Positions 6,398 through 51,052 of a stretch of DNA of 64,000 nucleotides are shown piece by piece; positions within the stretch are counted from its first letter, which is position 1; each line of letters begins with the position of its first letter. The notes beneath the pieces are model-generated. The model searched no databases, was not told where the DNA came from, and was given only the letters and a program-made list of their open reading frames with translations. The position numbers and the translations under genes were made by a program. This DNA comes from an uncultured Acidobacteriota bacterium (GTDB taxonomy: Bacteria > Acidobacteriota > Vicinamibacteria > Vicinamibacterales > SCN-69-37), in the NCBI GenBank assembly GCA_963798795.1, contig CAWCUZ010000001.1:1076729-1140728 (forward strand). Direction: 5' to 3'.

Positions 6398-6410
6398 TAC
6401 GGACATGGCC

Positions 6411-7912: not shown

Positions 7913-7938
7913 ACGTCCGCCCGCCAATGGAGGACGGT

Positions 7939-8001: not shown

Positions 8002-8006
8002 ACGCG

Positions 8007-15644: not shown

Positions 15645-15666
15645 GAAGGCGCATTCTAGCCGCGCT

Positions 15667-16524: not shown

Positions 16525-16557
16525 TCGCCGCAGAATAGCATGGCGTAGGATCAGCCC

Positions 16558-17514: not shown

Positions 17515-17590
17515 ACTCTCGTACCCGAGCGCGGCCATCGTCGCGCCCCGCGAGTCGAATGGCCTAACCGGCCGATCAGGTGTCCGTCTA

Positions 17591-18172
17591 ATGAAGCAGA
17601 TGCATCCGGACGACGCGGCTGCCGTCGCGCGAGCGAAGGGCGGCGACGAGGAGGCCTTTCGGACGCTGGTCGAACGGCATTCCCGGAGCATCTACCGGCT
17701 GGCGTATCGAATGACCGGTCGACCGGAGGATGCCGAAGATGTGGTGCAGGACGCGTTCGTGCGCGCTTACCGGCAGCTTGGCCGGTTCGAAGCGCGATCG
17801 AATTTCGCCACGTGGCTGTACCGGATTGCGTTCAACTGCGCGATTGACCATATGAGAAGCCGCCCGCATCGGGAGCACTCCGAACCGCACGACACGCTGG
17901 AACACCTCGCGCCGCACCAGTCCGGCCCGTCGCTCGATGACCTCGTGTTTGCCGCCGAGATCAACGTGCAGGTCCAGACGGCCCTCCAGGCGCTCAGCGA
18001 GCAGGAACGCGCGGCGTTTCTGATGCGCCACTATCACGGCTGTTCGATCGACGAGATCTGCGGCGTGCTCGGGCTCAAGTCCAACGCCGCCAAGCACTCG
18101 ATCTTCCGCGCCGTCCGCAAGATGCGCAGCGCCCTGAAGCCCCTGATGGATGCCCGCCATGCATGCCAGTGA
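17591..18172 (+). CDS. ECF (sigma-70 family) RNA polymerase sigma factor.
   Basis: This is the last 193 aa of ORF 17264..18172, from MKQMHPDD. Region 2 (DAEDVVQDAFVRAY...FATWLYRIAFNCAIDHMR) and region 4 (LSEQERAAFLMRHYHGCSIDEICGVLGLKSNAAKHSIFRAVRKMR) are recognisable. Confidence 0.9.
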   Translation: MKQMHPDDAAAVARAKGGDEEAFRTLVERHSRSIYRLAYRMTGRPEDAEDVVQDAFVRAYRQLGRFEARSNFATWLYRIAFNCAIDHMRSRPHREHSEPHDTLEHLAPHQSGPSLDDLVFAAEINVQVQTALQALSEQERAAFLMRHYHGCSIDEICGVLGLKSNAAKHSIFRAVRKMRSALKPLMDARHACQ

Positions 18173-18953
18173 AGACGACCTGATTCTCCATTTCTACGGC
18201 GACGCCGACGGCGAGTCCGCGGCGCGCGTCGACGCGCACCTGGCCGGCTGCGGTGCGTGCCGCCAGACGTTCAACGAGCTTCAGGACACGCTGAGGCTCG
18301 TCGACGCGGCTGCGGTGCCCGAGCCCGGCCCGGCGTTCGAGCGCGTGACGTGGGCTCGGGTGCAGGCCGCCATCGGGTCGGCCCGTCCGCGGCGGGCGGC
18401 CTGGTGGACCACCCGCCCGCTGCTCTGGGCCGCGAGCCTCGTCCTCGTAGCGATGGTCAGCGGCGCCGTGGCCGTGCGGTGGTTCCGGCCTTCGACGGCC
18501 GCGTCGACCACGACTGCAACGGCCGGGGCGCGGCCGGGCGCCACCGCCACGGGCGCGGATCGCCCGGCGAGCCGCACGCGCGAGCGGCTGCTGCTCTCCG
18601 CGCTCGACGATCACTTCCAGCAGACGGAGCTGCTGCTCGTCGAGATCATGAATTCTCCGGCGGCGGGCGGCGAACTGCAGTTCGAGCGGCAAACGGCCGG
18701 CGACCTCGTCGCGTCAAACCGGCTGTACCACGAGACGGCCGTCATGAACGGCGACGTGAGGCTGGCGCAGATGCTCGAGGATCTGGAAACCGTGCTCGTC
18801 GAAGTGGCGCACGCGCCGGCCCGGGTCGAAGCCGCCGACCTGACCTCCCTGCGCGACCGGATCACGGACGACAGTCTGCTCTTCAAGGTGCGGGCCGTCT
18901 CGAGCGAGGTTCGTAAGCGCCAGCGCGATTTGATTTCGGACGCCAGTGAGTGA
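18150..18953 (+). CDS. Anti-sigma factor (zf-HC2 type) with one transmembrane helix.
   Basis: The ORF overlaps the sigma gene's end. It has the HxxxCxxC motif AHLAGCGACRQTF and a TM segment PLLWAASLVLVAMVSGAVAV. Confidence 0.75.
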   Translation: MPAMHASEDDLILHFYGDADGESAARVDAHLAGCGACRQTFNELQDTLRLVDAAAVPEPGPAFERVTWARVQAAIGSARPRRAAWWTTRPLLWAASLVLVAMVSGAVAVRWFRPSTAASTTTATAGARPGATATGADRPASRTRERLLLSALDDHFQQTELLLVEIMNSPAAGGELQFERQTAGDLVASNRLYHETAVMNGDVRLAQMLEDLETVLVEVAHAPARVEAADLTSLRDRITDDSLLFKVRAVSSEVRKRQRDLISDASE

Positions 18954-18960
18954 GGACCCC

Positions 18961-20586
18961 ATGACACGACTGCCTGCTTTCGTCGGTTTCGCTCTTCTCG
19001 TTCCCGTGGCCGTCGCCGCGCAGCCGGCGCCGCGGCCCGCGCCGCCGGCGCCGCGGCCGACCCAGACGCCGATGGTCGTGCCGGCGCCCGCGCCCCGAGT
19101 CCTGGCGCCGGAGCTCCCGCCGCTGCCCGAGGTCGCGCTCGCGCCCCGGCCCGATCTGGATCTGATGCCGCTGGCTCCCCTGCCCATGCTGGCCCCCGTT
19201 CCGCCCCAGCGGGTAGTGATCGATCCCGACGCGGTCGACGCCATTCGCCAGGCCGCTGAAGCGGCGCGTGACGCCGCGCGCGATGCGCGGCGCGTCGATC
19301 TGGATGCGATGCGCCAGGCCATGGACGAAGCGCGCGTCCAGCTGCACGACTTCCGATTCGACATGCCCGACATCCACGTGCCCCTGCCGGACGCGCACGT
19401 GTGGAGCGACTTCGACCTGCAGGCGTCTCCCTGGGTCACGGCCGACCAGGGCGCCAGCAGCGACGCGAGCCTCTACAGCAACGGCCTCGGCTACATCCAG
19501 CGCCACAACTACGACCAGGCCATCGTCTACTTCGACCGCGCGCTCGCGCGGAAAGGCACGCATGGCGAGGGGGCCCTGTACTGGAAGGCGTTCGCGCAGT
19601 ACAAGCTCGGCAAGACCACCGAGGCGCTGGCCGCGATCGCGGACCTGCGCAAGAGCTATCCGCAGAGCTCGTACCTGAACGACGCCAAAGTGCTCGAGGC
19701 CGACGTCCGGAAACTCGACGGCCAGCCGGTCAACGTGGCCGGCATGGACGACGAGGAGCTGAAGATCCTCGCCATTCACGGCATCCTGAACGCGGATCCG
19801 GATCGGGCGCTGCCCCTGATCGAGGGCGTGCTCAACGCCACGAACTCGTTGTCGGTCAAGAAGGAGGCGCTCTACGTGCTCGCCGGCAGCGACGACGCGC
19901 GCGCGCACCAGATCCTGCTGAAGTACGCCAAGGGCGCGGGGAATCCGGATCTGCAGAGCCTCGCGATCCGGTACCTGGCGAGCACGGGCAAGCAGCAGAC
20001 GACCGCCGCGGAGCTGCGCGAGATCTACGAATCGACCCAGGACCCCGCCATCCGCTCGGCGATCATCGACGCCTACGCGCGGTCCGGCAACAAGAACGCC
20101 CTGTTCACGATCATCAGCTCCAGCGGCAGCACGCCGGTCGCGCTGCGGCAGCGCGCGGTGAACGGCGTCGGCGACCTGGCGACCCCCCAGGAAATCTGGA
20201 CGCTCTACCAGAAGGAAGAGAACCGCGATCTGCGGATGCAGATGGTGAGCGCGTTCAGCTCGATGGGCGCGATCGACCAGCTGACCGAGGTCGCGAAAAC
20301 GGAGAAGGACCCGGCGGTGAAGCAGCGCGCCATCCGATCGCTCGGCAACGCCAAGGCCGACAAGACCGGTTCGGTCCTCACGACAATCTATGCCGCCGAT
20401 TCCGACAAGGACACGCGCAAGACGATCATCTCGGCGCTCGCGAACCAGGGCAACGCCGAGGCCCTCGTCGCCCTCGCCCGCAAGGAGACGAGCCTGGATC
20501 TGAAGACCGAGATCGTCCGCCGGCTGTCGGACATGGCGCCGAAGTCGAAGGTGGCGGCGGACTATTTGATGGAAGTCATCAAGTAA
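18961..20586 (+). CDS. Secreted TPR plus HEAT-repeat protein.
   Basis: ORF 18946..20586, using ATG 18961 (MTRLPAFVGFALLVPVAVAAQ). A Pro-rich linker is followed by a TPR-like part (YDQAIVYFDRALARKG...ALYWKAFAQYKLGKTTEALAAI) and then repeated HEAT-like units (DPAIRSAIIDAYARSGN, DPAVKQRAIRSLGN, DKDTRKTIISALANQGN). Confidence 0.65.
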   Translation: MTRLPAFVGFALLVPVAVAAQPAPRPAPPAPRPTQTPMVVPAPAPRVLAPELPPLPEVALAPRPDLDLMPLAPLPMLAPVPPQRVVIDPDAVDAIRQAAEAARDAARDARRVDLDAMRQAMDEARVQLHDFRFDMPDIHVPLPDAHVWSDFDLQASPWVTADQGASSDASLYSNGLGYIQRHNYDQAIVYFDRALARKGTHGEGALYWKAFAQYKLGKTTEALAAIADLRKSYPQSSYLNDAKVLEADVRKLDGQPVNVAGMDDEELKILAIHGILNADPDRALPLIEGVLNATNSLSVKKEALYVLAGSDDARAHQILLKYAKGAGNPDLQSLAIRYLASTGKQQTTAAELREIYESTQDPAIRSAIIDAYARSGNKNALFTIISSSGSTPVALRQRAVNGVGDLATPQEIWTLYQKEENRDLRMQMVSAFSSMGAIDQLTEVAKTEKDPAVKQRAIRSLGNAKADKTGSVLTTIYAADSDKDTRKTIISALANQGNAEALVALARKETSLDLKTEIVRRLSDMAPKSKVAADYLMEVIK

Positions 20587-20619
20587 GGCAGAAGGCAAAA
20601 GGCAGAAGGCAGAAGGCAA
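20585..20619. repeat. Heptamer tandem array (AAGGCAG/AAGGCAA) x5.
   Basis: aaggcag aaggcaa aaggcag aaggcag aaggcaa starts inside the TAA stop of the upstream HEAT gene and ends 20 nt before the next ATG. Confidence 0.9.
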
Positions 20620-20639
20620 CAGTTTCGGAGCGCCGCCCT

Positions 20640-21760
20640 ATGCGCGTATTGCTCGCAAGCGCCATGTTGCTGGCTGCGGCGACGGCCGGCACGGCCTTCC
20701 AGGCCCCGGCTGCGCAAGTGCCGTCGCAGATCCAGGTCCAGAACGGCCGGATCGAGCCGCGGCCGGGCACCGACATCGCCGCGGAGGCCGCGCGCCTCGC
20801 GCCGCCGGCCGGCGCCGATCCGGTCTGGCTCGGCTGGCGCGTGCCCATCGTCGCGGGCGGCCGCGGCGGCTGCAGCTGGTACGTCGACGACGGCACGGGA
20901 CCGATGGGAATCCGCGCGTCGGTCCTCGAATCCTCCGGCGCGCGGCTGCCGCAGATTGCGCCGCCGACCGGCCCCGTGCCGATCGAGGCCGGCACCGGCC
21001 TGATGGTGCTCCTCCGCCTGCTGGACGGCCAGGTCGAGCGGATTCGCACGCTCGGAGACGACTGCCCCATCGATGCCGGCGGCCGCACCCTGTACCTGGC
21101 TCGCCGGCGTCACCCCCGCCGCGAGCCTCGCCTACCTGGACACCCTGACCCACGGCGCCGCGCCGGCCGACATGACGCCGAACGCGTGGCGCCGCCGGGC
21201 CGAAGCGGCCGTCTCGGCGATTGGCCAGCACGGGGACGCGGCTGCGGACGCACTGCTCGACCGGCTCCTGTCGACTGCGAATGATGCGGCGCTCCGGCAG
21301 CAGGCCGCCTCCGTGCTCGCCTCCACCCGAGGCGCGCACGGGTTCGACGCCGTGCGTCGGGCGATAGCCGCCGAGCGCGACCCCGCCGTCCGGCGCAGCC
21401 TCGTCGTCGCACTGGGCCAGACCCGCCAGCCCCAGACCCCTGAGGCGCTGCTCACCCTGGCGCGCCGCGATGCCGACGCCAGGGTGCGCAGCGAGGCGGC
21501 CTACTACTACGCCGTGCGGGCGGGCCCGGCCGGTGTGGCCAACGTGAAGGCATTGATCGCGAGCGACATGGACAGCAGCGTCCGCCGGCGTGCAGTGTCC
21601 GGCCTGGCGGCCCTGCCCGGCGACGTGGCGGTTCCGGATTCTGATCGAGCTGGCGCGAACGAGCCAGGACCTGGAGGTCCGGAAACAGGCCGTCTCGCAG
21701 CTCGGCCGCAGCAAGGACGCGCGCGCCGTCGCCTTCCTCGAGGAACTCATCAAGGGCTGA
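20640..21760 (+). pseudogene. Secreted HEAT-repeat protein with two frameshifts.
   Basis: MRVLLASAMLLAAATAGTAFQ...DCPIDAGGRTLY is inside ORF 19401..21284. It continues as WLAGVTPAASLAYL...ERDPAVRRSLVVALGQT...DADARVRSEAAYYYA...DSSVRRRAVSGLAALPGDVAVP in ORF 21073..22005. It then ends as ILIELARTSQDLEVRKQAVSQLGRSKDARAVAFLEELIKG in the third frame, with stop 21758-21760. Shifts fall near 21095 and 21637. Confidence 0.65.
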
Positions 21761-21800
21761 CGTGCGATACACTCCTCAGGTTTACGGAGGAGGTTCCACG

Positions 21801-24800
21801 ATGTCACGCCCAAGACGCCTCAGCGTTCCGATGGCCGTCGGCTGCGCCGTGCTCTGCACGGCCTGGGGAATCCAGGCCGGGGCGGCTCGCGCTGACCGGC
21901 AGACGGCCGCGCCCCCCGGCCTGGATCCTGCGCTGCTCGCCACGTTTCAGTGGCGGAGCCTCGGCCCGGATCGCGGCGGCCGCTCGCTCGCCGTCTCGGG
22001 CGTGAAGGGTCAGCCGGACGTCGGCTACTTCGGCGCCACGGGCGGCGGGCTCTGGAAGACGACGGACCGCGGCGATACCTGGGCGCCGGTCACGGACGGT
22101 CAGGTGCACAGCGGCTCGGTGGGCGCCGTCGCCGTCTCCGAGAGCAACCCCGACGTCGTCTACATCGGCATGGGCGAGTCGTGTATCCGCGGCAACATCC
22201 AGCCCGGGGACGGCGTCTACAGGTCCACCGACGCGGGCAAGACCTGGACGCACGTGGGGTTTTCGGACTCCGACGCCATCGCCAAGGTCCGGATCCATCC
22301 GACCAATCCCGACATCGTGTTCGTCGCCTCGTTCGGCAAGTACGGCGGGCCGAGCCCTGAGCGCGGCGTGTTCAAGACGACCGACGGCGGCCGGACGTGG
22401 AACAAGGTCCTGTTCCGCGATGACAAGACCGGCGGCGTCGACATCGCCATCGACCACAACAACCCGGCCGTGATGTACGCGGCGCTCTGGGAGGCGTTCC
22501 GCAAGGAATACACGATGTCGAGCGGCGGGCCTGGCAGCGGCCTGTTCAAGTCGACGGACGGCGGCGACACCTGGAGGGAAATCACCCGGAACCAGGGCCT
22601 GCCCTCGGGCATCGACGGCAAGATCGGCGTGGCCGTGTCGGGCGCGGATTCCAGCCGCGTCTACGCCATCGTCGAGAACGCGAACGGCGGGCTGTTCCGA
22701 TCGGACGACGCCGGCGCCACCTGGACGCTCGCCAACAACGAGCGCAGCATCCGCCAGCGCGCGTTCTACTACACGCATATCACCGCCGACCCGCACAACA
22801 AGGATCTGCTGTACGTGCTGAACGTCGGCACCTTCCGCTCGACGGATGCGGGCAAGACAATGGTCCGATTCGCCGGCGGCGATTCGCATGACCTGTGGAT
22901 CGATCCGGACGACTCCGAGCACGTGATGCACGCGAGCGACGGCGGCGGCGCGATCACCTATGACGCCAGCGCGCCGAACCGCAATTGGACCTCGCGGGAC
23001 TATCCGACCGGGCAGTTCTACCACGTGATTCCGACGGCCCACGTGCCCTACCAGATCTGCGGCGCACAGCAGGACAGCAGCACTGTCTGCATCCCGAGCA
23101 CTCCGTCGGGCGGCGGTGGCCGGGGCGGCCGCGGCGGACGCGGCGGGAGCGCGCCCACCAGCTACAGCCCCGGCGGCGCCGAGCCCGGCTACATCGCGCC
23201 CGATCCGAAGGACCCCGACGTGTTCTTCTCGGGCAGCAACAACGGCGGCTTTATGGACTACGTCAACCGGCGCACCGGCGAGCGGCGCGAGGTCCATCCG
23301 TACCCGCGCATGTTCTCCGGCGAACCGTCGAGCGCGCTCGTCGAACGGGTCCAGTGGACGTACCCGATCGTCTTCTCGCCCGTCGATCCGAACGTGCTCT
23401 TCACCGCCACCCAGCACGTGTGGCGGACGACCAGCGGCGGACAGACGTGGGACCGCATCAGCGACGACCTGACGCGGCACGACCCGTCGACGATGGGCGA
23501 TTCGGGCGGACCGATCACACACGACATGAACGGTCCGGAGGTGTACGCGACGGTCTTCGCGCTCGGCCCATCCAAGGTCGACGTGAACGTGCTCTGGGCG
23601 GGCTCTGACGACGGGCTCGTCAACGTGACGCGCGACGGCGGCAGGACGTGGACGAACGTGACGCCGCCGGGCATGCCGGACTTCGGCCGCGTGAGCATCA
23701 TCGACGCGTCGACGTTCGACGCCGGCACGGCCTACGTGGCCGTCAAGCGGCCGCTGCTGAACGACAAGGCGCCCTACCTCTTCCGCACCCACGACTTCGG
23801 CCGGACCTGGACGAAGATCGTCAACGGCCTCGGCCCGCTCGACTACGTGCACACGGTGCGCGAGGACCCCACGCGCCAGGGGCTGCTCTACGCCGGCACG
23901 CAGCATGGCGTGTACTACTCGTACGACGACGGTGGTACCTGGCGGTCGCTGTCGCTGAACCTGCCCGACACGCAGGTGTCGGACCTGTGGGTCGTCGACA
24001 GCGACATCGCGATCGCGACGCACGGACGCGGGTTCTACATCCTCGACCACATCGCGCCGCTGCGGCAGTACGGCGCGCAGCCCGCCGCGGCGAGCGATGC
24101 CGTCCTGTTCAAGCCAGACGCGGCGATTCGCTCCGCGGGCAACGCGACCATCGAGTACTGGCTGAAGCAGCCGGTCGGCACTCTCACCCTCGACGTCGTC
24201 GACCCGAAGGGAACGGTCGTCCATTCGTTCTCGAGCAACGCCGCGGCCGGTGGTGGAGGCGGACGCGGCGGGCGCGGCGGCGGCGGGGCTGGCGCGGGAC
24301 GCGGCGGCGGCCGCGGGCAGGCACCAGCACCGGCGGCGCCGTCGGCGAGCGTCGGATCGCCAGGCGCCGGATGCGGCCCAGGCGGAGGCGGCTTCGGGGG
24401 ATTCGGCGGCCGCGGCGGCCGTGGCGGCGGAGCCGCGGGCCCCACGCCCGCGCCGGCCACTGTCGGGTTGAACTGCGTGACGTGGAACCTGCGTTATCCC
24501 GATGCGGTCGGCTTCCCGGGGATGATCCTGTGGGGCGGCGGCCTGAGCGGGCCGGCCGCGGCTCCCGGAACCTACCAGGTGCGGCTCACCGCGAACGGCA
24601 GGACGCAGACCCAGCCGCTCGTCATCAAGCGACACCCGTGGCACGCCGCGACCGACGCCGACCTGCAGGAGCAGTTCGACCTGGCGATCCAGGTCCGCGA
24701 CAAGGTCACCGAGGCGAATCAGGCGGTGATCCAGATTCGCCGAATCCAGGACGCGGTCGGTGACCGCCTCGGCAAGTCATCCGATGCGCGGCTCAAGTCG

Positions 24801-25103
24801 GCGGGCGACCGGCTGAAGACGAACCTCAGCGCGGTCGAGGAGACCATCTACCAGGTCCGCAACGAGAGCGGTCAGGACCCGCTGAACTTCCCGATCAAGC
24901 TGAACAACCGGCTGGCCACTCTGCTGTCGGTCGTCAGCGACGGCGACGGCAAACCCATCGGAAACGCGCGGCCGATCTTCAACGACCTGACCGCGGAGCT
25001 GAAGGTGCAGACCGACAAACTGCAGCAGGTACTGACCGCCGACCTGACGGCGTTCAACACCGAAGCGCGGAGGCTGGGGCTGGAGCCGATCAGCGACAAG
25101 TGA
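21801..25103 (+). CDS. Secreted BNR/Asp-box, sortilin (VPS10)-like beta-propeller protein with Gly/Arg-rich inserts.
   Basis: ORF 21762..25103, using ATG 21801 (MSRPRRLSVPMAVGCAVLCTAWG). Repeated Asp-box motifs are present: KTTDRGDTW, RSTDAGKTW, KTTDGGRTW, KSTDGGDTW, RSDDAGATW, RSTDAGKTM, RTTSGGQTW, VTRDGGRTW, RTHDFGRTW and YSYDDGGTW. The frame is intact over 3.3 kb. Confidence 0.85.
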   Translation: MSRPRRLSVPMAVGCAVLCTAWGIQAGAARADRQTAAPPGLDPALLATFQWRSLGPDRGGRSLAVSGVKGQPDVGYFGATGGGLWKTTDRGDTWAPVTDGQVHSGSVGAVAVSESNPDVVYIGMGESCIRGNIQPGDGVYRSTDAGKTWTHVGFSDSDAIAKVRIHPTNPDIVFVASFGKYGGPSPERGVFKTTDGGRTWNKVLFRDDKTGGVDIAIDHNNPAVMYAALWEAFRKEYTMSSGGPGSGLFKSTDGGDTWREITRNQGLPSGIDGKIGVAVSGADSSRVYAIVENANGGLFRSDDAGATWTLANNERSIRQRAFYYTHITADPHNKDLLYVLNVGTFRSTDAGKTMVRFAGGDSHDLWIDPDDSEHVMHASDGGGAITYDASAPNRNWTSRDYPTGQFYHVIPTAHVPYQICGAQQDSSTVCIPSTPSGGGGRGGRGGRGGSAPTSYSPGGAEPGYIAPDPKDPDVFFSGSNNGGFMDYVNRRTGERREVHPYPRMFSGEPSSALVERVQWTYPIVFSPVDPNVLFTATQHVWRTTSGGQTWDRISDDLTRHDPSTMGDSGGPITHDMNGPEVYATVFALGPSKVDVNVLWAGSDDGLVNVTRDGGRTWTNVTPPGMPDFGRVSIIDASTFDAGTAYVAVKRPLLNDKAPYLFRTHDFGRTWTKIVNGLGPLDYVHTVREDPTRQGLLYAGTQHGVYYSYDDGGTWRSLSLNLPDTQVSDLWVVDSDIAIATHGRGFYILDHIAPLRQYGAQPAAASDAVLFKPDAAIRSAGNATIEYWLKQPVGTLTLDVVDPKGTVVHSFSSNAAAGGGGGRGGRGGGGAGAGRGGGRGQAPAPAAPSASVGSPGAGCGPGGGGFGGFGGRGGRGGGAAGPTPAPATVGLNCVTWNLRYPDAVGFPGMILWGGGLSGPAAAPGTYQVRLTANGRTQTQPLVIKRHPWHAATDADLQEQFDLAIQVRDKVTEANQAVIQIRRIQDAVGDRLGKSSDARLKSAGDRLKTNLSAVEETIYQVRNESGQDPLNFPIKLNNRLATLLSVVSDGDGKPIGNARPIFNDLTAELKVQTDKLQQVLTADLTAFNTEARRLGLEPISDK

Positions 25104-25224
25104 TTGGGAGATTTGGCGATTTGGCGATTTGGAGATCTGGTTGCAGCGTTCCAAACCGGCAATCTCCAAACCTCCAAACCTCCAAACCTCCAAATCTCCA
25201 AATCTCCAAATCTCAATCCCAATC
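25102..25224. repeat. Opposed arrays of an 8-nt unit (GATTTGGN vs NCCAAATC) forming a long imperfect hairpin.
   Basis: The left arm is gattggga gatttggc gatttggc gatttgga gatctggt (25102-25141), followed by the spacer tgcagcgt. The right arm is tccaaacc ggcaatc tccaaacc x3 tccaaatc x3 tcaatccc aatc (25150-25224). The outermost gattggga pairs with tcccaatc at 25217-25224. The array lies between convergent genes. Confidence 0.9.
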
Positions 25225-25242
25225 GTCGAATCCCGCCTCGCA

Positions 25243-25788
25243 TCAGTGGACGCCGTGTCCCATCTGCAGCAGGTGGGGATCGGCGCCGAGACGGCGAATC
25301 GCCATCTCCCACGACGCCTGGGGCGGAATCTCGAAGATGAGGTCCAGCTCCACGGGCATGATCAGCCAGGCCGACTCGGCCAGTTCCGTATCGAGCTGGC
25401 CGGGACCCCAACCGGCGTAGCCGGCGAGCACGTGGGTGCGGCGCGGCAGCGGCTGCGCCGTGAGCACGCGGCGCAGCAGGACGGGCGACGCCGACAGATA
25501 CAACCCGGCACCGAGTTCGCGCGACTCGACGCCGTCCGGTTGCTGTGACGTCAGGATCCATCCGCGCTGCGGTTCGACCGGGCCGCCGATGAGCAGCGGC
25601 AGGTCGTTCGGTTGACTCAGCGGCGGATCCAGGCTCACCGCCCGCGCGGCCTCGACTTCCGAGGGCCGATTGACGATCAGGCCCAGCGCGCCCTCGGGCG
25701 CGTGCTCGCACAGAAGCACGACGGACCGCGCGAAATTCGGATCGATCAGCTGCGGCATCGAGAGAAGGAGGGCGGGTGCGAGCGACAT
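25243..25788 (-). CDS. YqgE/AlgH family protein (UPF0301).
   Basis: ORF 25243..25914 from internal MSLAPALLLSMPQLIDPNFARSVVLLCEH...GLIVNRP...GGPV...AGYAGWGPGQLDTELAESAWL. The upstream part of the ORF merely translates the repeat array. Confidence 0.85.
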   Translation of the reverse strand: MSLAPALLLSMPQLIDPNFARSVVLLCEHAPEGALGLIVNRPSEVEAARAVSLDPPLSQPNDLPLLIGGPVEPQRGWILTSQQPDGVESRELGAGLYLSASPVLLRRVLTAQPLPRRTHVLAGYAGWGPGQLDTELAESAWLIMPVELDLIFEIPPQASWEMAIRRLGADPHLLQMGHGVH

Positions 25789-25808
25789 GAGATCGATAGT
25801 AGCAGGTG

Positions 25809-25965
25809 GCTCGGGTCGCTCAGGTCTGTCGGGGCCCTGGGGTCCTTCAGGTCCGAGGCGCGGCGGTCCCGGTCGGCGATTGACGATGGCCCAATCGCGA
25901 TTGGAGATTGCCAAGCGACGATTGCCGGTGCGTGGGTCTCGGGTCCCTCAGGTCCCTCGGGTCCG
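25809..25965. repeat. Nonamer-phased arrays (GCTCGGGTC-type and TCGGGTCCC-type) flanking a GATTG-rich segment.
   Basis: The first block is gctcgggtc gctcaggtc tgtcggggc cctggggtc cttcaggtc (25809-25853). The middle segment is ggcgattgacgatggcccaatcgcgattggagattgccaagcgacgattgcc. The second block is tcgggtccc tcaggtccc tcgggtccg (25939-25965), which overlaps the last codons and stop of queG. Confidence 0.8.
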
Positions 25966-26877
25966 GGCGGCGGTGGCGTAGCGAAGCGAGCGCCGGATGC
26001 GGCGGAGGCCGGCGCGGCGCATCGCGCTGCCCTTCAGGAGCGTCCGCCACGCGTCGTCGGACAGCCGGCACAGGTCGACGAGCCGCGGGAACGCCAGACC
26101 GTCGCGCGGCTGCCAGGCCGGATCGTCGCTGACGGCCGCGCGCCGGTTCCACGGACACACGTCCTGACAGATGTCGCACCCCAGAATCTCTTTGCGCACC
26201 GCCGGCTGCCGCGAGGTGTCCACCTCGCCGCGCGCTTCGATGGTCAGATACGACAGGCAGCGGGTGGCATCCAGTTCGTACGGCTGCACGATGGCGCCCG
26301 TCGGACACGCATCGAGGCACCGGGTGCAGGTGCCGCAGTGATCGACCGCCGGCGCATCGGGCTCGAGTTCCGCGTTGGTGAGCACCTCGCCGAGGAACAG
26401 CCACGATCCGATCTGCCGGTTGATGACGCAGGTGTTCTTGCCGATCCAGCCGAGGCCCGCCTGCTCGGCGAACACGCGCTCCTGCACGGGCCCCGCGTCC
26501 ACACACGAGAACGCTTCGAAGCCTTCCCCGGCCGCCTCGCGTAGACGCCGCAGCAGGTCGCGCAGCCGGTTGCGCAGGACCTCGTGGTAGTCGTCGCCCC
26601 ACGCGTAGCGGGAAATCGCCACGCGGTCCGCATCGGTGATCTCGGTCGAATAGGGCCGGTCGGTGTTGTAGACGCACGCGACGGACACGACCGACCGTGC
26701 GGTCGGCAGCACGCGCGCGGGATCCAGCCGTTCGTCGAGAGACTCGGCCAGATACCGCATGTCGCCAGCGCGTCCAGCGGCAATCCAGTCGGCGAGCCGC
26801 GCGAGACGCGGATGCCGCTCGGCGCGCGCGACACCGCACAGGTCGAAGCCGGCCTCGCGCGCCGCCGCCTTCACCAT
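25948..26877 (-). CDS. queG: Epoxyqueuosine reductase QueG.
   Basis: This is the last 309 aa of track ORF 25948..27807, from MVKAAAREAGFDLCGVA. It has ISRYAWGDDYH, GLGWIGKNTCVI, two 4Fe-4S Cys clusters (CGTCTRCLDACPTGA, CDICQDVCPWN) and a HEAT-like tail. Confidence 0.9.
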   Translation of the reverse strand: MVKAAAREAGFDLCGVARAERHPRLARLADWIAAGRAGDMRYLAESLDERLDPARVLPTARSVVSVACVYNTDRPYSTEITDADRVAISRYAWGDDYHEVLRNRLRDLLRRLREAAGEGFEAFSCVDAGPVQERVFAEQAGLGWIGKNTCVINRQIGSWLFLGEVLTNAELEPDAPAVDHCGTCTRCLDACPTGAIVQPYELDATRCLSYLTIEARGEVDTSRQPAVRKEILGCDICQDVCPWNRRAAVSDDPAWQPRDGLAFPRLVDLCRLSDDAWRTLLKGSAMRRAGLRRIRRSLRYATAARTRGT

Positions 26878-26981
26878 CAAGGAGTCGAGCACACGTCGAG
26901 TGGTACTGGGCCCTGGGCTGTCGGTCGTGGGCAGGCGCCCCGAGGCTTCCGCCCCGGCCGAGCAGCGGGAGCCGGCGTGCG

Positions 26982-29678
26982 TCAGCCGCGCGCCAGCCGC
27001 CGGAGCACGTACGGCAGGATTCCGCCGTGCCGGAACGCGGCGAATTCCTCGGGCGTGTCGATGCGAACGACGACCTGGACGTCCGCGGACGTGCCGTCGG
27101 GGCGCCGCGCGGTGACGGTCAGCCTGACGGGCGGCCGCTCGCCGGCGTCGAACGCCTCGACGTCGAACAGCTCGCGGCCGGTGAGGCCGAGCGAGGCCGC
27201 CGATTCGCCGGCCGGAAACTGCAGCGGCAGGACGCCCATGTTGACGAGATTGCTGCGGTGGATCCGCTCGAAGCTCTCGGCGAGCACGGCCTTCACGCCG
27301 AGCAGCAGGGTCCCTTTGGCGGCCCAGTCGCGCGACGATCCGGACCCGTACTCCTTGCCGGCAACGACGATCAGCGGCACGCCGGCATCGCGGTATTTCA
27401 TGGCCGCGTCGTAGATCGACATCACGCCGTCGTCGGGCAGATAGGTCGTCCAGCCGCCCTCGGTGCCGGGCGCCAACTGGTTCTTGAGGCGCACGTTCGC
27501 GAACGTGCCGCGCATCATCACCTCGTGGTTGCCGCGCCGGGCGCCGTACGAGTTGAAGTCCTTCGGCGTCACGCCCTGGGCGATCAGGTACCTGCCCGCC
27601 GGGCTGTCCGCCTTGATCGATCCGGCCGGGGAAATGTGGTCGGTCGTGATGCTGTCGCCGAGCAGCGCGAGCACGCGCGCGTTGCGGAGCGGCGTGAACG
27701 CCGGCGGCTCGGGCGTCAGGTCCTCGAGGAATGGCGGGCGCCGGATGTAGGTGGACGCCGGATCCCAGACGAAACGATCGCCGGTCGGCACGGGCAGCCC
27801 GCGCCACAACTCGTCACCATCGAAGACGTGCGCATATCGCTGCCGGAACATGTCGGCCGACACCGACGCCAGCATCGTCTCGTGGATCTCGCGCTGCGTC
27901 GGCCAGATGTCGGCCAGGAACACCGGCCGACCGTCGGCGCCCGTGCCGAGCGGATCCTTTGACACGTCCACGTTCATCGATCCGGCCAGTGCATACGCGA
28001 CGACGAGCGGCGGCGAGGCCAGGTAGTTGGCGCGCACGTCCTGCTGGATGCGCCCCTCGAAGTTCCGGTTCCCCGACAGCACCGCGCAGACGACGAGTTG
28101 CCGTTCGCGCACTTCGGCGGCAATCGCCTCCGGCAGCGGTCCGCTGTTGCCGATGCAGGTCGTGCAGCCGTACCCGACGAGATTGAAGCCGAGTGCGTCC
28201 AGATAGGTCTGCAGACCCGACTTCGTCAGGTAATCGGTCACGACCTTCGAGCCTGGCGCGAGGCTGGTCTTGACCCAGGGCTTCGTCTTCAACCCGCGCT
28301 CGACGGCCTTCCGTGCCACGAGACCGGCGCCGATCATGACGCTCGGATTGGACGTGTTCGTGCAGCTCGTGATGGCCGCGATGACGACCGACCCGTGCTC
28401 GAGCGCGGTCGCCGTCGCCACGGCTTCCGCCGCCGCGACGCCGCCGCCCGACGACGCCGGCGGCTGGCTGAGCCCCTTCTGCAGATCGGGCAGCGCGGCG
28501 GCAAAGGAGCGTTTGGCCTGCGCGAGCGGAACACGATCCTGAGGCCGCCGCGGGCCGGCCAGGCTCGGCTCCACGGCGCCGAGGTCCAGCGCCAGCCCGC
28601 CGGCATACTCGGCCTCGGGGCTGGCGTCGGTGCGGAACAGCCCCTGGGCCTTGGCGTACGCCTCGACGAACGCCACGTGCTCGGCATCGCGTCCGGTGAG
28701 GCGCAGGTAGTCGAGCGTCATATCGTCGATCGGAAAGACCGCGACCGTCGCGCCGTACTCCGGGCACATGTTGCCGAGCGTGACCCGGTCGGCAATCGTC
28801 AGGTGTTTCAATCCCGCGCCGAAGAACTCGACGAACGACCCCACGACGCCCTTCCGGCGCAGCGACTCGGTGACGGTCAGGACCAGGTCGGTGGCCGTCG
28901 TGCCCTCGCGCAGCCGGCCCGTGAGCCGGTAGCCGATCACCGGCGGAATCAGCATCGAGCTGGGCTGGCCGAGCATCGCCGCTTCCGCCTCGATGCCGCC
29001 GACGCCCCACCCCACCACGCCGAGGCCGTTCACCATCGTCGTGTGCGAGTCGGTGCCGAACACGGTATCGGGGTATGCGAGCGTCCGGCCGCCAGCCGCG
29101 GTCCGGCACACGACCCGGGCGAGATACTCGATGTTCACCTGGTGCACGATGCCGGTCTCGGGCGGCACGACCCGGAAATTGCGGAACGCCGTCTGGCCCC
29201 AGCGCAGGAAGGTGTAGCGCTCGCGATTGCGGTGGTACTCCATCTCGGCATTGAGGCCGAGCGCCTTCGGGGAGCCGAAGTAGTCGACCTGGACGGAGTG
29301 ATCGATGACCAGCTCGACCGGCTGGAGCGGGTTCACACGCTCGGGGTCGCCGCCGAGCTGGGCGATGCCGTCGCGCATCGCGGCCAGGTCCACGACGCAG
29401 GGCACGCCGGTGAAGTCCTGCAGCAGGACCCGCGCCGGCATGAACGAGATCTCCGTCTGCTCGCGCGCGCCGCGCGCCAGCGCCTCGATGTCGGCCGGCG
29501 AGACGAACGCCCCGTCCTCGCGACGCAGCAGGTTCTCGAGGAGGATCTTGAGCGAATACGGCAGCCGCTCGACGCGGCCGAATCCGCCCTGCGCGGCCAG
29601 CGCCGGCAGGCTGTAGAACTCGGACGGGACGCCGCCCAGCGTCGCCGTCGTGCGGGTGCGGAAGGAATCGTGAGACAT
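26982..29678 (-). CDS. acnA: Aconitate hydratase A.
   Basis: ORF of 898 aa, intact and AcnA-like end to end: [77 protein letters not shown], and [16 protein letters not shown]. Confidence 0.95.
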
Positions 29679-29681
29679 CGG

Positions 29682-30377
29682 TCAGAACCCGATCAACAGG
29701 CCGGCGAGGAACGTGCCGGCCACGAGATGCCGGCGGTCGCCGAGATGGAAGACATTCGACCGCTCGGTCAGGCGGGCCTCGGCGCGGATCCCCAGCCGGT
29801 GGATGAGGCCGCCGCCACCCTGTCGCCACCAGTATTTCACGCCTCCACCAGCATTGGCGACGTGCCCGTTCCCGGCGATCTGCCGATCCGACGAGAGGCC
29901 GCGCAACCAGCCGGCCGCTCCTCGCGCGAACCACTCGGCGCGCCCGCGCCGCCGGAGGGTCCACAGCGCCGCGCCTTCCAGCGCAAACTGGGAGACCGGC
30001 GTGGTGAGCGTGAGGGCGTCGGCCCCGTCGACGTCCGCTGAAATGCGCGTCTCGATCTGTCCGCGCATCCAGCTGCCGGACAGCTCGGCCGACAGCCGCC
30101 GGCCGACCCGCATCGAGACCGCACCCTCGAGTCCGGCGCCGGCCCCCAGCCGGTTCTCGGTGGCGAACACGGGCAAGGGCGAGCCGTCTCCGGTGAGCAG
30201 GTCGGCGCTCATCGTGCCAAGCGAGGAGGTCGAGGCTCCGGCGAATGCCATCGACAAATCGACCGCATGGCCGGCGGAGGCCGGCGGCCCGACCGCCTGT
30301 GGTGCGGCGTGCACCCGCGCCACGCCCGCCTCCACGACAAGGAGGCCCACCGCAGCGAGCGCCACGAGGGTCCTCAT
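29682..30377 (-). CDS. Predicted outer-membrane beta-barrel protein.
   Basis: ORF of 231 aa with signal peptide MRTLVALAAVGLLVVEAGVARVHA, alternating Gly/aromatic beta-strand-like segments and a C-terminal ...FLAGLLIGF ending in Phe. Its ATG overlaps the stop of the upstream protease gene. Confidence 0.55.
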   Translation of the reverse strand: MRTLVALAAVGLLVVEAGVARVHAAPQAVGPPASAGHAVDLSMAFAGASTSSLGTMSADLLTGDGSPLPVFATENRLGAGAGLEGAVSMRVGRRLSAELSGSWMRGQIETRISADVDGADALTLTTPVSQFALEGAALWTLRRRGRAEWFARGAAGWLRGLSSDRQIAGNGHVANAGGGVKYWWRQGGGGLIHRLGIRAEARLTERSNVFHLGDRRHLVAGTFLAGLLIGF

Positions 30378-31393
30378 TTCGACTTCACCGCAATCTCGAT
30401 CGGCGACGCCGCGCCCCCGGCCGGCACCGACACCAGGCGCTCGAAGTAGGCGGGCCGGAAATCGAGATCCACGAACGTGTCCTCGTCGAAGAAACTGTCG
30501 ATGTCGGCGTCGTCCAGCGGCTCGGCTCGAATGACGTAGAGACCGGGTGTCAGGCCGCCGAGGACGAAGCTCCCCTGCTCATCGAGCGAGAATCCCCCGA
30601 CGAGCGTCCCCGTCGCCATGGAGAGCGCCGTCACGTGTGCGCCGAACACGCCGCGGCCGGCCAGCGTGACCCGTCCGCTGACGGCGCCGAGGTCCTGGCG
30701 GAACGCCGGCGTCCGATACACGTCCTGGATGCCTGCGACGTCGTCCGGCTTCAGGGTGCGGTCGACGAGGCTGCCCGGCGCGTAGGCGATCGGGAACATC
30801 ACCGCCCGCTTGCCGAGCACGCGGCGCCCCCCGTCGGGCCGCAGCTCCGTCTCGCCGAGTGCCGAGTGCGAAAGCCCCAGCAGGTGGCCGACCTCATGGA
30901 GCGCCACCGACTGCAGGTCGTACCGGCCGGCCTCTCCGTTCGCCGATGCCGACCACGTGAACGCCGGCGTCAGGTTGAAGAAGATGTCGGATTCGACGAG
31001 CGATCCATCCGTCTCGTCGACGACGAACGTCGTCGCGGCGAGCGTGCGCTCGAGTTCCGGACGCGCGCGGAACCCCATGACGTTGGCGCCGTCGTCGGCG
31101 AACGGCTCGTTGGAGGTGAACCCGCCGAACTGGCCGCTGATGCCGGTGCCGGGCACGGCGCCCCAGGTCGCGAACGCATGGTCGATCGCGGTCTGCAGGT
31201 CCGCGGCGCTCACCCCGGGCGCGTCGCGGTTGGTGACGAAGTACGGCACGGGAAACCGGGACCACCGCAAGCCCACGACCTGCGTCCCGACCCGAGCGCC
31301 GAGTTTGAGGTAGGCGCGCGCGGCCGGCGTCAGTCCGGACCCCAGCCCGAGAGCCACCAGCAGCACCACGGGCCTGGCGAGCCGACGGGTCAT
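30374..31393 (-). CDS. Matrixin (M10)-like zinc metalloprotease with a C-terminal carboxypeptidase-regulatory-like beta-sandwich.
   Basis: ORF of 339 aa with signal peptide MTRRLARPVVLLVALGLG and the zinc motif HEVGHLLGLSHS followed by a Met-turn candidate (AVMFP). The C-terminal part is GRVTLAGRGVFGAHVTAL...GLYVIRAEP. Confidence 0.8.
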   Translation of the reverse strand: MTRRLARPVVLLVALGLGSGLTPAARAYLKLGARVGTQVVGLRWSRFPVPYFVTNRDAPGVSAADLQTAIDHAFATWGAVPGTGISGQFGGFTSNEPFADDGANVMGFRARPELERTLAATTFVVDETDGSLVESDIFFNLTPAFTWSASANGEAGRYDLQSVALHEVGHLLGLSHSALGETELRPDGGRRVLGKRAVMFPIAYAPGSLVDRTLKPDDVAGIQDVYRTPAFRQDLGAVSGRVTLAGRGVFGAHVTALSMATGTLVGGFSLDEQGSFVLGGLTPGLYVIRAEPLDDADIDSFFDEDTFVDLDFRPAYFERLVSVPAGGAASPIEIAVKSK

Positions 31394-31953
31394 CGGCCGC
31401 CCGTGCCTTGACGCGCGCGCGTGGCCTGCACCAGCCGCACGAGCCCCTCGAACTCGGAGGGTGAAAGCCCGTGGCGGCGCGGTTCCCCACGGTTGACTCG
31501 GCCCGACGGCGCGGTGACGCCGGCCAGAAGCGGCGGATCCACCACGGCGCGGCCGCTCGCCGGTTCCGCCCGCACGTGGACGACCCCCATCGTCAGGCCG
31601 ATCGGACGCCAGTACCCATCGGCTCCGCGCCGGAGAAAGCAGAACACCTGTTCGCCCGCGCGGAGTTGCGGCGCGCCAATCATCACGTACCGGTACCGCC
31701 CGATCTCGCCGCCGGGGAACCTGAGCGAGACGAACGCCTGCGGCGACCCCTTCAGCACGCGATCGACCGCCAGCGTGGCGACCGACTCCACGCCGGATCG
31801 AGGCACCTCCACCGACCGCACGTCGGTGACGCGGCCGCGCACGATCAACTCCGCGTCGTCGACGAGCCCGCGGAACTCAGTAGGGATGACGACGGTCGCC
31901 GAAGCCGAAGCGGCCAGCGCCACGATCACGGTGGCTGTGAGACAGAAGCGCAT
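31390..31953 (-). CDS. Secreted hypothetical protein, first gene of a three-gene overlapping unit.
   Basis: ORF of 187 aa with signal peptide MRFCLTATVIVALAASASA. I recognise no family motif. Its stop overlaps the start of the matrixin gene. Confidence 0.5.
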   Translation of the reverse strand: MRFCLTATVIVALAASASATVVIPTEFRGLVDDAELIVRGRVTDVRSVEVPRSGVESVATLAVDRVLKGSPQAFVSLRFPGGEIGRYRYVMIGAPQLRAGEQVFCFLRRGADGYWRPIGLTMGVVHVRAEPASGRAVVDPPLLAGVTAPSGRVNRGEPRRHGLSPSEFEGLVRLVQATRARQGTGGR

Positions 31954-32015
31954 AAAGGGGGACGGGAGATTTTTCCACAGATTCGGGCGATCCGGGGACA
32001 GAGGATGGGCTGACG

Positions 32016-32072
32016 GAATTCAAGGATTCAAGGAATCAAGGATTCGAGGATTTGGGAGTTCAAGATTCAGAG
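32016..32072. repeat. Octamer tandem array (GATTCAAG-type) x7.
   Basis: gaattcaag gattcaag gaatcaag gattcgag gatttggg agttcaag attcagag. The array overlaps the lpxB stop codon (32060-32062). Confidence 0.85.
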
Positions 32073-33241
32073 TGCAGCATTCGGAGGACGGCTGCCGCCG
32101 CGCGCGCCGAGGCGCCCGGCCCGCCCAGACGTGCCCGGACCTCGGCCAGATCGCGGCGCATCGTGCTCGCGCGCGCCTCATCGGTCAACAGCGAGACCGC
32201 CTCGTCGGCGACGCGTTCGGGCGTGAAGGCGTCCTGAATCAGTTCCGGCACGACCGCGCGGCCGGCCACCAGATTGACCATGCCGTACGTGCTGACCCTG
32301 ACGACCCGCCGGCCGAGCCCGTAGGTCATCGGCGAGAGCCGATAGACGATCACCATGGGCCGGCCGTGCAGCGCGGTCTGGATGGTCGCCGTGCCGGACG
32401 CGGTGACCACCGCGTCCGACGCGGCGAGCACGTCGTCGGTGGCGTGCTCGACGACGGCGAGCGGCAGACCGGCCGCTCGCACGGCGTCGAGCGGCGCGAA
32501 CAAGTCGTCGTCGAGGGACGGGGCGCGGGCCAGCAGGAACTGGACGCCGGGCCGCCGCGCCGCGATCCGCGGCGCGGCGGCGGCGAGCGTCGGCAGGATG
32601 TGGCGCAGCTCGCTCGGGCGACTGCCCGGCAGCAGCGCCAGGATCGGCCGGCCGGGATCCAGGTCGACCGAGGCGAGAAATGCGTCCCGCGCGCGCCCGG
32701 CCTGCGTCAACTCCACGAGCGGATGTCCGACGAACTCCACCGGCACGCCGGCCTGCTCGTACATCTCCGCCTCGAACGGAAAGATCACCAGCATGCGGTC
32801 GACGTACCGCCGGATCGTCCGGAGCCGGCCGGGCCGCCAGGCCCAGAGCTGCGGGCTGACGTAGTAGACGATCCGCACGCCCCGGTCACGCAGCGCCGGC
32901 AGCAAGCGGAAATTGAAATCAGGGAAATCAATGGCGACAAACACGTCCGGCCGCCGCTCGCGCGCCGCCTCGCGCAGCTCGCGGAGCATCCGCCACGACT
33001 GCGGCAGCACGGAGAGCGCTTCGACGAGTCCGGTGACGGTGAAACCGCGATAGTCGCCGAGGAGATCGGCGCCGGCGGCGGCGAGCCGCGGTCCACCGAA
33101 CCCGAACGCCTGCACGCCGGGCCGCAGCGCGGTCAGCTCGCGCACGAGCGCGCCGGCATACAGATCGCCCGACGCCTCACCGCACGAGATCATCACGCGG
33201 GGCGGCCCGGCGCCGCGCCCGGCCGGCGGCGCGGGACTCAC
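32060..33241 (-). CDS. lpxB: Lipid-A-disaccharide synthase.
   Basis: ORF of 393 aa with MISCGEASGDLYAGALVREL, DFPDFNFRLLP, YYVSPQLWAWRPGR, FPFEAEMY, VGHPLV and ASGTATIQTALHGRPMVIVYR. The exact start (33241 or the internal Met) is uncertain. Confidence 0.9.
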   Translation of the reverse strand: MSPAPPAGRGAGPPRVMISCGEASGDLYAGALVRELTALRPGVQAFGFGGPRLAAAGADLLGDYRGFTVTGLVEALSVLPQSWRMLRELREAARERRPDVFVAIDFPDFNFRLLPALRDRGVRIVYYVSPQLWAWRPGRLRTIRRYVDRMLVIFPFEAEMYEQAGVPVEFVGHPLVELTQAGRARDAFLASVDLDPGRPILALLPGSRPSELRHILPTLAAAAPRIAARRPGVQFLLARAPSLDDDLFAPLDAVRAAGLPLAVVEHATDDVLAASDAVVTASGTATIQTALHGRPMVIVYRLSPMTYGLGRRVVRVSTYGMVNLVAGRAVVPELIQDAFTPERVADEAVSLLTDEARASTMRRDLAEVRARLGGPGASARAAAAVLRMLHSES

Positions 33242-41774: not shown

Positions 41775-42212
41775 TCAGCCGTTCACGGGAATCTGCCGCG
41801 GCCGCGCTTCGTCGCGCCGGGGCAGAGTGAGCGTCAGCACGCCGTCCTCGTAACTGGCCTGCACGTGCTCGGCGTCCACCGCCTGCGGCAGCGTGAAGCT
41901 GCGCCGGAACGAGCCATAGCTGCGCTCCAGCCGGTGATACCGGTCGCGGTTGACGTCACGGTCGAACGCGCGCTCGCCCTCAATCGTGAGGACGTTGTTC
42001 TCGAGCGTCACCTTGATGTCCTCGCGCTTCAGGCCGGGCAGTTCCACCTTGACCACCGCGTCCTTCGTGTCGGTGTCGTAGATGTCGACGGCCGGCGTCC
42101 AGCCGCCGCTCGTCGTCGGCTCGCTGCCGAAAAAGTCATCGAACATCCGGTTCAGGCGGTCCACCTCGACGGCAGCCAGGCCACTCATCGGGCTCCAACG
42201 GGTCAGTGTCAT
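41775..42212 (-). CDS. Hsp20/alpha-crystallin small heat-shock protein.
   Basis: ORF 41775..42278 from MTLTRWSPMSG. The alpha-crystallin domain is PAVDIYDTDTKDAVVKVELPGLKREDIKVTLENNVLTIEGER...ERSYGSFRRSFTLP...ASYEDGVLTLTLP. The RBS gaggagga lies upstream of the ATG. Confidence 0.9.
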   Translation of the reverse strand: MTLTRWSPMSGLAAVEVDRLNRMFDDFFGSEPTTSGGWTPAVDIYDTDTKDAVVKVELPGLKREDIKVTLENNVLTIEGERAFDRDVNRDRYHRLERSYGSFRRSFTLPQAVDAEHVQASYEDGVLTLTLPRRDEARPRQIPVNG

Positions 42213-42249
42213 GGTCGGTCTCCTCCTCAAGGGTCGATTCGTTAGAGAC

Positions 42250-51048: not shown

Positions 51049-51052
51049 TGCC

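Follow-up and report, generated by a model that had tools for sequence, protein, structure and literature searches.

What fills the space between two convergent genes when that space is little more than a palindrome? The question arises in a stretch of 64,000 nucleotides from an uncultured Acidobacteriota bacterium of the order Vicinamibacterales (the whole 64-kb stretch analysed, hereafter the window, whose positions serve as coordinates throughout). Here a gene for a BNR/Asp-box protein on the + strand and yqgE on the - strand run towards each other with a stop-to-stop gap of 139 nt, 123 of which are occupied by a palindrome built of tandem octamers. Our preferred answer, which we rate at an even chance, is that the resulting hairpin is a 3'-end element shared by both convergent mRNAs, i.e. 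a terminator or pause site without a U-tract and/or a barrier to 3' exonucleases, which arose by slippage and inverted copying. Such hairpins are common in the lineage, and this locus is an ordinary example of the class.

Anatomy and predicted folding of the palindrome

A first-pass annotation made from the letters alone had described two opposed octamer arrays, separated by an 8-nt spacer, between convergent genes, and the sequence, Tandem Repeats Finder (TRF) and the folds all confirm this. The left arm (25102..25141, + strand; sequence, TRF and pattern count) consists of five octamers of the GATTTGGN type, i.e. GATTGGGA (25102-25109), two copies of GATTTGGC (25110-25117 and 25118-25125), GATTTGGA (25126-25133) and GATCTGGT (25134-25141). 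It is followed by the spacer TGCAGCGT (8 nt; 25142..25149, unstranded), which together with the adjacent units gives only a small, weak core hairpin by sequence and folds. The right arm (25150-25224) holds about nine octamers of the NCCAAAYC type in two blocks, both listed on the + strand. The inner one (25150..25188) reads TCCAAACC (25150-25157), an irregular GGCAATC (25158-25164) and three more copies of TCCAAACC (25165-25188), and the outer one (25189..25224) reads TCCAAATC three times (25189-25212), TCAA and TCCCAATC (25217-25224).

The arms are unequal, as had been claimed (40 nt on the left and 75 nt on the right), and identical variant units sit in contiguous blocks within them. The outermost units (25102-25109 and 25217-25224), said to pair, are indeed exact reverse complements, TCCCAATC being that of the first unit GATTGGGA, i.e. 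the outermost variant is mirrored in both arms. TRF gave a period of 8 for both arrays (4.9 and 6.4 copies, with 87% and 97% matches), and both arms have the build of long-unit simple sequence repeats (SSRs), i.e. units of 5-11 nt, head to tail, in non-coding DNA. An inverted-repeat search returned arms of 39 nt, 82-85% complementary, in several registers. The window has 10 matches to the pattern GATTTGGNGATTTGG (up to two mismatches) where 0.12 would be expected by chance, nine of them in the hairpin, and the GC content of the hairpin is about 50% within a 70% GC genome (the window, too, has 70% GC, with its low-GC islands being intergenic). The palindrome is real and not a chance product.

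Folding, one of the checks proposed with the annotation, showed that both strands fold far better than shuffled sequences (z about -6). The predicted RNA energy is -50.2 kcal/mol (z -6.0) for the + strand and -63.6 kcal/mol (z -6.4) for the - strand, with none of 200 dinucleotide shuffles as stable as either; with DNA parameters the energies are -29.6 and -33.9 kcal/mol. The annotation had expected a 'slippery stem' with many alternative registers, but the partition function puts 87-100% of the pairing on both strands in a single one. In this register the left arm pairs with 25189-25224 (pair probabilities of 0.99-1.0 on the + strand and 0.87-0.90 on the - strand), while registers offset by one or two units reach 3-6% only, and on the - strand only, in the pair-probability matrix.

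In the stem of about 35 bp, 7-bp helices alternate with single mismatches, a C facing a U at position 8 of the unit, and there is also a bulge of 4 nt. Its length is three to four times that of the usual terminator stem, less than the order of magnitude that had been stated; a usual terminator has a stem of 7-14 bp, a 4-nt loop and about -18 kcal/mol (WebGeSTer, PMC3013805). On the + strand the inner right-arm block, with its four TCCAAACC units, is unpaired and forms a loop of about 45 nt that is rich in C and poor in G. On the - strand, which carries GGAG every 8 nt, the same block pairs partly via G-U, which explains why this strand is more stable by 13-15 kcal/mol. Since the periodic mismatch falls at the same unit position, homogenisation within an arm outruns any correction across the arms, and the inner TCCAAACC block likewise shows within-arm duplication outpacing between-arm matching.

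Recurrence of array-built hairpins at gene ends

For comparison we used 160 loci found by scanning genomes with the BNR protein and metagenomes with YqgE, plus two loci added by exact-protein look-up (L numbers denote these loci). The YqgE of the window (P0001) forms a single-member cluster, its next relative being 88% identical. The BNR-yqgE synteny is kept in three genomes (L015, L052 and L004), and the hairpin is absent from all three; in L015 and L004 one more gene lies between BNR and yqgE, and the BNR stop of L015 is followed by a small AATGAGGC array. The hairpin was found in none of the 78 inspected yqgE loci, of which only L086 (YqgE 84% identical) shares a GATTTGGN-type unit. In L086 the yqgE stop is followed at once, on the yqgE-sense strand, by CAATTTGGA GATCTGGA GATTTGGG GATTTGGA, part of an array of five units that agrees with the right arm of the window in unit, strand and position and has no opposing arm. 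Read on the yqgE-sense strand, the outer right block of the window is GATTTGGA, as in this array. The yqgE-proximal array predates this genome, to which the opposing arm is confined. The unit-wise expansion suggested earlier is supported by the blocks of identical units, the unequal arms, the five units of the same octamer in L086 and the absence from syntenic relatives.

Other relatives end yqgE differently, i.e. with an 18-bp hairpin of the ordinary kind, bearing A and T runs, in L162 (YqgE 86% identical) and with small GC hairpins in L161. An AMP-binding (acyl-CoA ligase-like) gene follows yqgE in L015 (7229-8761; Pfam), and probably the same kind of gene does so in L086 (from about 640) and several other loci, judged from the translated start. 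Since this gene is missing at 25104-25242 of the window, the junction has been rearranged, and the hairpin sits at a deletion or rearrangement junction. Near-identical locus pairs were searched for changes in copy number, and indels were found in coding sequence only. In two pairs of contigs (L087 vs L088, and L155 vs L157) the sequences are 91-99% identical through yqgE and diverge completely at the yqgE stop, which makes this gene end a recombination or rearrangement breakpoint in the lineage.

Although the sequence is not conserved, the architecture recurs. TRF run on all loci returned many pairs of arrays with reverse-complement units, 13-100 nt apart and each with a unit of its own, such as AAACCACG/TTTCGTGG (L051), GGAAGACG/CGTCTTCC (L050), GACACGAG/CCTCGTCT (L083), the heptamers AGTNAGA/TCTNACT (L112) and CATGGAGA/TCTCCATG (L113). 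A BLAST-based scan of 1.1 Mb of related loci for inverted repeats (arms of at least 20 nt, at least 80% match, at most 160 nt apart) found 37, among them 33 non-coding ones, about 20 of which are visibly made of 7-9-nt tandem units (eight by a strict automatic criterion). Members of the class occur in several classes of the Acidobacteriota, in Gemmatimonadota and at one Chloroflexota locus. Most of them start 0-6 nt after a stop codon, and their units vary from locus to locus, periods of 7 and 8 predominating among 87 non-coding arrays. The stop codon may itself lie inside the repeated unit, as in L044 (TAGGCGA), L162 (TGATGTGG) and L144 (GATTTGGTGA); with a period of 7 or 8 such a unit provides stops in all three frames.

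At the yqgE 3' end itself, where 78 loci (not mutually independent) were scored, an array begins no more than 30 nt from the stop in about 19 of them. A strong structure is present in 13 of the 78, and nine of these are array-built, with at least seven different units, so the same architecture arose repeatedly at one gene end. More generally, strong structure (z <= -3.5) was seen in 34% of convergent (n=50), 14% of co-directional (n=121) and 5% of divergent (n=38) intergenic regions of 50-260 nt, and arrays in 20%, 12% and 8%, respectively, with genes taken from a rough caller based on third-position GC content (GC3) that gives approximate starts. This gradient, i.e. convergent above co-directional above divergent, is as expected if the hairpins act at gene 3' ends. 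In addition, 25 of 29 array-built hairpins have a purine-rich 5' arm and a pyrimidine-rich 3' arm (binomial p about 1e-4, the loci not being fully independent), a polarity that reads identically on both strands. The A-tract/T-tract polarity of bidirectional terminators matches that of the class, but the latter could equally stem from seeding at purine-rich stop codons.

Related units (RATTTGGN, GTGATTGG) turn up at unrelated loci and genomes (L119, L053, L142, L144 and L162) and on the viral contigs L166 and L168. Scanning viral contigs for the unit turned up unrelated arrays that say nothing about function, among them an opposed one (L168). In L168 (4500-4650) the opposed arrays of a related unit, CAAATCAC/GTGATTGA, form a hairpin, and in L166 (2850-2910) a promoter-like site (TTGACA…TAGAAT) is followed at once by five copies of GATTTGGG.

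How, then, does the hairpin relate to described elements? A canonical L-shaped terminator has a GC-rich stem of 5-14 bp, a loop of 3-8 nt and a U-tract, whereas the stem here is about 35 bp long with about 50% GC and a loop of about 45 nt, and lacks the U-tract. It does agree with the I- and X-shaped types of WebGeSTer (hairpin within about 50 nt of the stop, at most three U, convergent genes), the - strand with its four U in 10 being borderline L-shaped. Terminators without a U-trail are reported to be more used in GC-rich genomes, and the convergent 'X-shaped' form is a recognised type (PMC3013805). The likeness to I- and X-shaped terminators lies in the stop-adjacent position and the lack of a U-run, and for the X-shaped ones also in the sharing by convergent genes; the differences lie in the periodic mismatches of the long stem, the large loop, the GC content of about 50% and the tandem 8-mers, and the activity here is predicted only. 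Among long-stem terminators, TerR of plasmid pLS20 (PMC10325885) resembles the hairpin in its unusually long stem.

Repetitive extragenic palindromic elements (REPs) and bacterial interspersed mosaic elements (BIMEs) are likewise imperfect intergenic palindromes that frequently lie at the 3' ends of genes and have been proposed to act in termination and mRNA stabilisation (PMC3733652, PMC2817692). They measure 20-40 nt, however, carry a GTAG/CGTC tag, are linked to RAYT transposases and have a single conserved sequence that is dispersed in many copies, whereas the hairpin has a private sequence and internal tandem periodicity; no GTAG/CGTC tag was found, and within the window its unit pattern forms a hairpin at one locus only. 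The closest described anatomy is that of the paired sites (classes 1-3) of Geobacter metallireducens, i.e. 24, 21 and 8 pairs of intergenic sites with 3-5 tandem 7-9-mers on opposite strands at variable distance (PMC2700814), and tandem 7-9-mers on opposite strands are what we find here. The Geobacter sites follow one consensus (e.g. GTTGCTYN) at 8-24 places of the genome, sometimes beside insertion sequence (IS) elements, and were read as regulator sites; among the loci compared here, by contrast, the units differ from one to the next, with the pairs lying close to stop codons. The window holds no second GATTTGGN-type pair, with similar units found at other loci in other genomes.

Tandem intergenic units of 6-9 nt, as seen here, are also known as long-unit SSRs, including the short tandemly repeated repetitive (STRR) heptamers of cyanobacteria, the G-rich heptamers of Xanthomonas and Nostoc (PMC4692102), TAACTGA of Beggiatoaceae (PMC4679880) and those of a wider survey (PMC4060949). 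The Xanthomonas arrays adjoin or overlap stop codons (PMC4692102). These long-unit SSRs are direct arrays of one genome-wide unit (with a 5'-UTR bias in Beggiatoaceae) with one inverted case reported, whereas here two opposed arrays fold into a hairpin and the units vary by locus. Our literature search found this architecture undescribed for Acidobacteriota and Gemmatimonadota, and nothing that ties Vicinamibacter to tandem repeats, but its base was incomplete and it is therefore weak evidence that the class is undescribed.

Possible role and origin

As a shared 3'-end element, the palindrome would give, on transcription from either side, one dominant hairpin of about 35 bp with the surplus inner units looped out. 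This hairpin could act as a non-canonical 'I/X-shaped' terminator or pause site at the ends of both mRNAs and/or block 3'-to-5' exonucleases, and convergent transcription would be kept from entering the opposite gene. The array may have been seeded at a stop codon and enlarged by replication slippage of 8-nt units, whose loops would be too large for efficient mismatch repair. The arms would then have been linked by inverted copying (template switching), with one arm expanding further later. That they are related by inverted copying is suggested by the outer variant GATTGGGA mirrored here and by a variant unit in L094, ACTTCAA/TTGAAGT, likewise mirrored in both arms. Quasipalindrome template-switch mutagenesis together with slipped-strand mispairing would explain such mirrored variants and unit gains in one arm, which is a mechanism rather than a family of elements. 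The odd tandem build would thus be a record of origin and not of a special function.

The region 15000-34999 contains three canonical hairpin-plus-T-run terminators against 6.5 expected, i.e. no enrichment, and other 3' signals must therefore be in use. The first-pass annotation had played down ordinary termination in favour of functions beyond a 3'-end hairpin, such as a cruciform, a protein-binding array or an RNA scaffold; no evidence supports these, and the recurrence of the class and the concentration of structure at gene 3' ends favour a terminator-like reading. A separate RNA is not indicated, with no promoter-like site found by the scan of 15000-34999 and no Rfam family at gathering thresholds. 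At E <= 1, Rfam gave only sub-threshold matches to models of eukaryotic miRNA precursors, i.e. those of a generic long hairpin. An independent small RNA was dismissed on the missing promoter-like site in 15000-34999. Two further candidates were set aside, namely a sponge for CsrA-type GGA binding (some arrays fit, but GGA is not common to the class) and a multi-frame stop-codon array (some arrays fit, but the left arm has no further stop codons). On the + strand the right arm resembles a Rho rut site in being G-poor and C-rich, but is largely paired.

Several observations weigh against a 3'-end function. By the criterion of the terminator scan no U-tract follows the stem on either side, and the hairpin was not listed; the trails are GUCGAAUCCC on the + strand (two U in 10) and ACUUGUCGCU on the - strand (four U in 10). 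The stem is far longer than termination needs, and the relative L052 manages without a hairpin, with 10 nt between the BNR and yqgE stops. Among 23 class members, sense and antisense folds are equally stable with no consistent bias, so there is no G-U signature of RNA-level selection, although the comparison gives little information on such selection. Single unpaired arrays are also seen elsewhere in the window, in spacers of the 5' and intra-operon kind (6410-6567 and 25786-25947), and arrays as such therefore need no 3'-end function; they look like a lineage-wide mutational habit. The mutual dependence of the yqgE loci and the approximate gene calls behind the context statistics tell in the same direction.

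The main rival is a neutral one, in which 7-9-nt units expand by slippage in tolerant spacers and template switching inverts some of them, the products having no function and being harmless at gene ends. We consider this possible, if on the unlikely side. Every locus has units of its own, syntenic relatives lack the hairpin, arrays without structure lie in a divergent spacer and in the queG-yqgE spacer (two genes that adjoin directly in L161 and L162), the four inner TCCAAACC units form an unpaired surplus, the mismatch recurs at one unit position as expected where within-arm homogenisation prevails, and no folding bias favours the sense strand. Moreover, an intergenic excess of SSRs with 6-11-nt units in some prokaryotes and weak repair of larger loops are documented (PMC4060949). 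A neutral process does not, however, readily account for opposed pairs far in excess of the expectation for two independent arrays, for structure and arrays both ordered by gene orientation, or for hairpins that arose repeatedly at the yqgE end with different units, and it requires an extra assumption, e.g. stop-codon seeding, for the purine-5'/pyrimidine-3' polarity of 25 of 29 hairpins. Binding of a protein, either to DNA (a nucleoid protein or global regulator) or to RNA by a factor reading GGA/GGAG on the yqgE-sense strand, seems improbable to us. The paired sites of G. metallireducens were interpreted as regulator (IHF/HU) sites (PMC2700814), RATTTGGN and GTGATTGG recur at unrelated loci and genomes, and the - strand offers GGAG every 8 nt, but the units vary so widely across the class that no single motif is common to it, the unit forms a hairpin only here within the window, and no candidate binding protein was identified. 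An 8-bp period, being out of phase with the helix, would also place successive sites on different helix faces, which argues against a one-face array.

A remnant of a mobile element inserted between the genes, of the MITE (miniature inverted-repeat transposable element), REP/BIME or integron attC type, is very improbable, even though the palindrome is extragenic, lies at a gene end and occupies a rearranged junction, the AMP-binding gene found after yqgE in relatives (L015, probably L086) being missing here. The window has no second copy, the flanks show no direct repeat beyond 2 nt, i.e. no target-site duplication, and neither a REP tag nor attC core sites (RYYYAAC / GTTRRRY) are present in the sequence. 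No transposase or integrase lies nearby, and the flanking genes are conserved, syntenic and not cassettes. Since the yqgE-proximal arm has a positional homologue in L086, local growth is indicated rather than insertion. Hardly to be expected, finally, is a cruciform or other non-B DNA structure acting in replication, recombination or supercoiling. In its favour are the length of the inverted repeat and the energies given above for single-stranded DNA, but the centre pairs poorly, the effective loop in the stable register is about 45 nt and a mismatch recurs every 8 bp. A poor centre, a large loop and regular mismatches raise the cost of cruciform extrusion. The 3'-end bias, too, points to transcription.

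Beyond the single locus, it is rather doubtful that opposed 7-9-nt arrays constitute a distinct and widespread gene-end architecture of soil Acidobacteriota and Gemmatimonadota, with a precedent in Geobacter. It would be generated again and again at stops by slippage and inverted copying that reinforce each other in a cycle, with fixed polarity (5' arm rich in purines) and a limited unit vocabulary, and would provide the main factor-independent terminators or 3' stabilisers, or else arrays for a binding factor. Transcript ends are little understood in these two phyla, which are abundant in soil, hard to culture and poor in canonical terminators. Should hairpins built from repeats prove to be the usual signal at their gene ends, predicting terminators and mapping operons in them will need a new model. 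If functional, the hairpins would be RNA structures made de novo by a simple mutational process, with fast sequence turnover and conserved architecture; if neutral, they would mark a lineage-specific bias towards slippage and template switching that is relevant to the assembly of metagenome-assembled genomes and to repeat counts as strain markers. Either way, the single locus is unremarkable for its own genome.

Neighbouring genes and other arrays

The BNR/Asp-box gene, of the sortilin-Vps10 type, occupies 21762..25103 on the + strand (1100-1113 aa; open reading frame, translation, Pfam PF15902 at 1.6e-26 and PF02012 at 1.4e-10). Its homologues align up to the last residues, and the last two bases of its stop TGA (25101-25103) start the first repeat unit. 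GGC-rich coding repeats at 23109-23146 and 24258-24430 encode Gly/Arg-rich low-complexity inserts (GGGGRGGRGGRGG…) in the protein. Upstream of BNR paralogues in three genomes (L020 3308-3438, L027 370-513 and L030 3238-3365) there is a conserved inverted repeat (…GTAGACAGCAGG, about 80 nt, CCTGCTGTCTAC…), which may be a conserved regulatory or RNA element. On the other side, yqgE/algH (DUF179; 181 aa) lies at 25243..25788 on the - strand (translation, Pfam PF02622 at 1.3e-40, 100% match to P0001 with its 181 aa), with its stop at 25243-25245, 18 nt from the base of the hairpin. An aconitase-queG-yqgE string on the - strand ends with this gene, and the same order is also found in L162.

Of the 35 spacers in the window that measure 40 nt or more, about six hold arrays. 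The queG-yqgE spacer (about 160 nt, within 25786-25970) contains GGGACC-type 9-mers that overlap the queG stop, plus CAATC-type units, and is unstructured (z +0.8). As queG and yqgE abut or overlap in L161 and L162, this spacer is a lineage-specific intra-operon expansion. A 12-mer of it, GGCAATCTCCAA, is also found, inverted, in the right arm of the hairpin. At 6410-6567, an apparent divergent promoter spacer, 160 nt of successive arrays (GATTCGT x4, GATTTGC x3, GATTGAT/GAACGATTGAG blocks and about eight copies of GCCGATT/GCCGATAG) run in one orientation and form no hairpin; many of these units have a GATT core in common with those of the hairpin. Five copies of AAGGCAG at 20585-20618 begin inside the TAA stop of the upstream + strand gene, about 20 nt before the ATG of the next, as a single array with no inverted partner. 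Between two - strand genes, 32018-32070 holds 4.4 copies of ATTCAAGG followed by degenerate units, the + strand reading CAAGGAUUCAAGGAAUCAAGGAUUCGAGGA, i.e. repeated A(N)GGA-like motifs.

Arrays also flank tRNA-Val (50892-50968), with TGGGACCT x4 upstream (50806-50840) and GAACCYG x11 downstream (50978-51050), which are not mutually complementary. The stretch with the lowest GC content in the window (42205-42346, 45%) lies in a divergent spacer, has no tandem arrays and is probably a promoter region. A 6S RNA is encoded at 57993-58176 on the + strand (Rfam RF00013, 74.5 bits, full length). Lastly, GC-rich REP-like palindromes (e.g. CCCCGGGGCTGCAGCCCCGGGG and GCCGGACCTTCAGGTCCGGC) are located at other gene ends, i.e. 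at 7930-8010 of the window, in L108 (1752-1915 and 3558-3656) and in L099 (815-873), so that array-built 3' hairpins exist alongside others of an ordinary kind.

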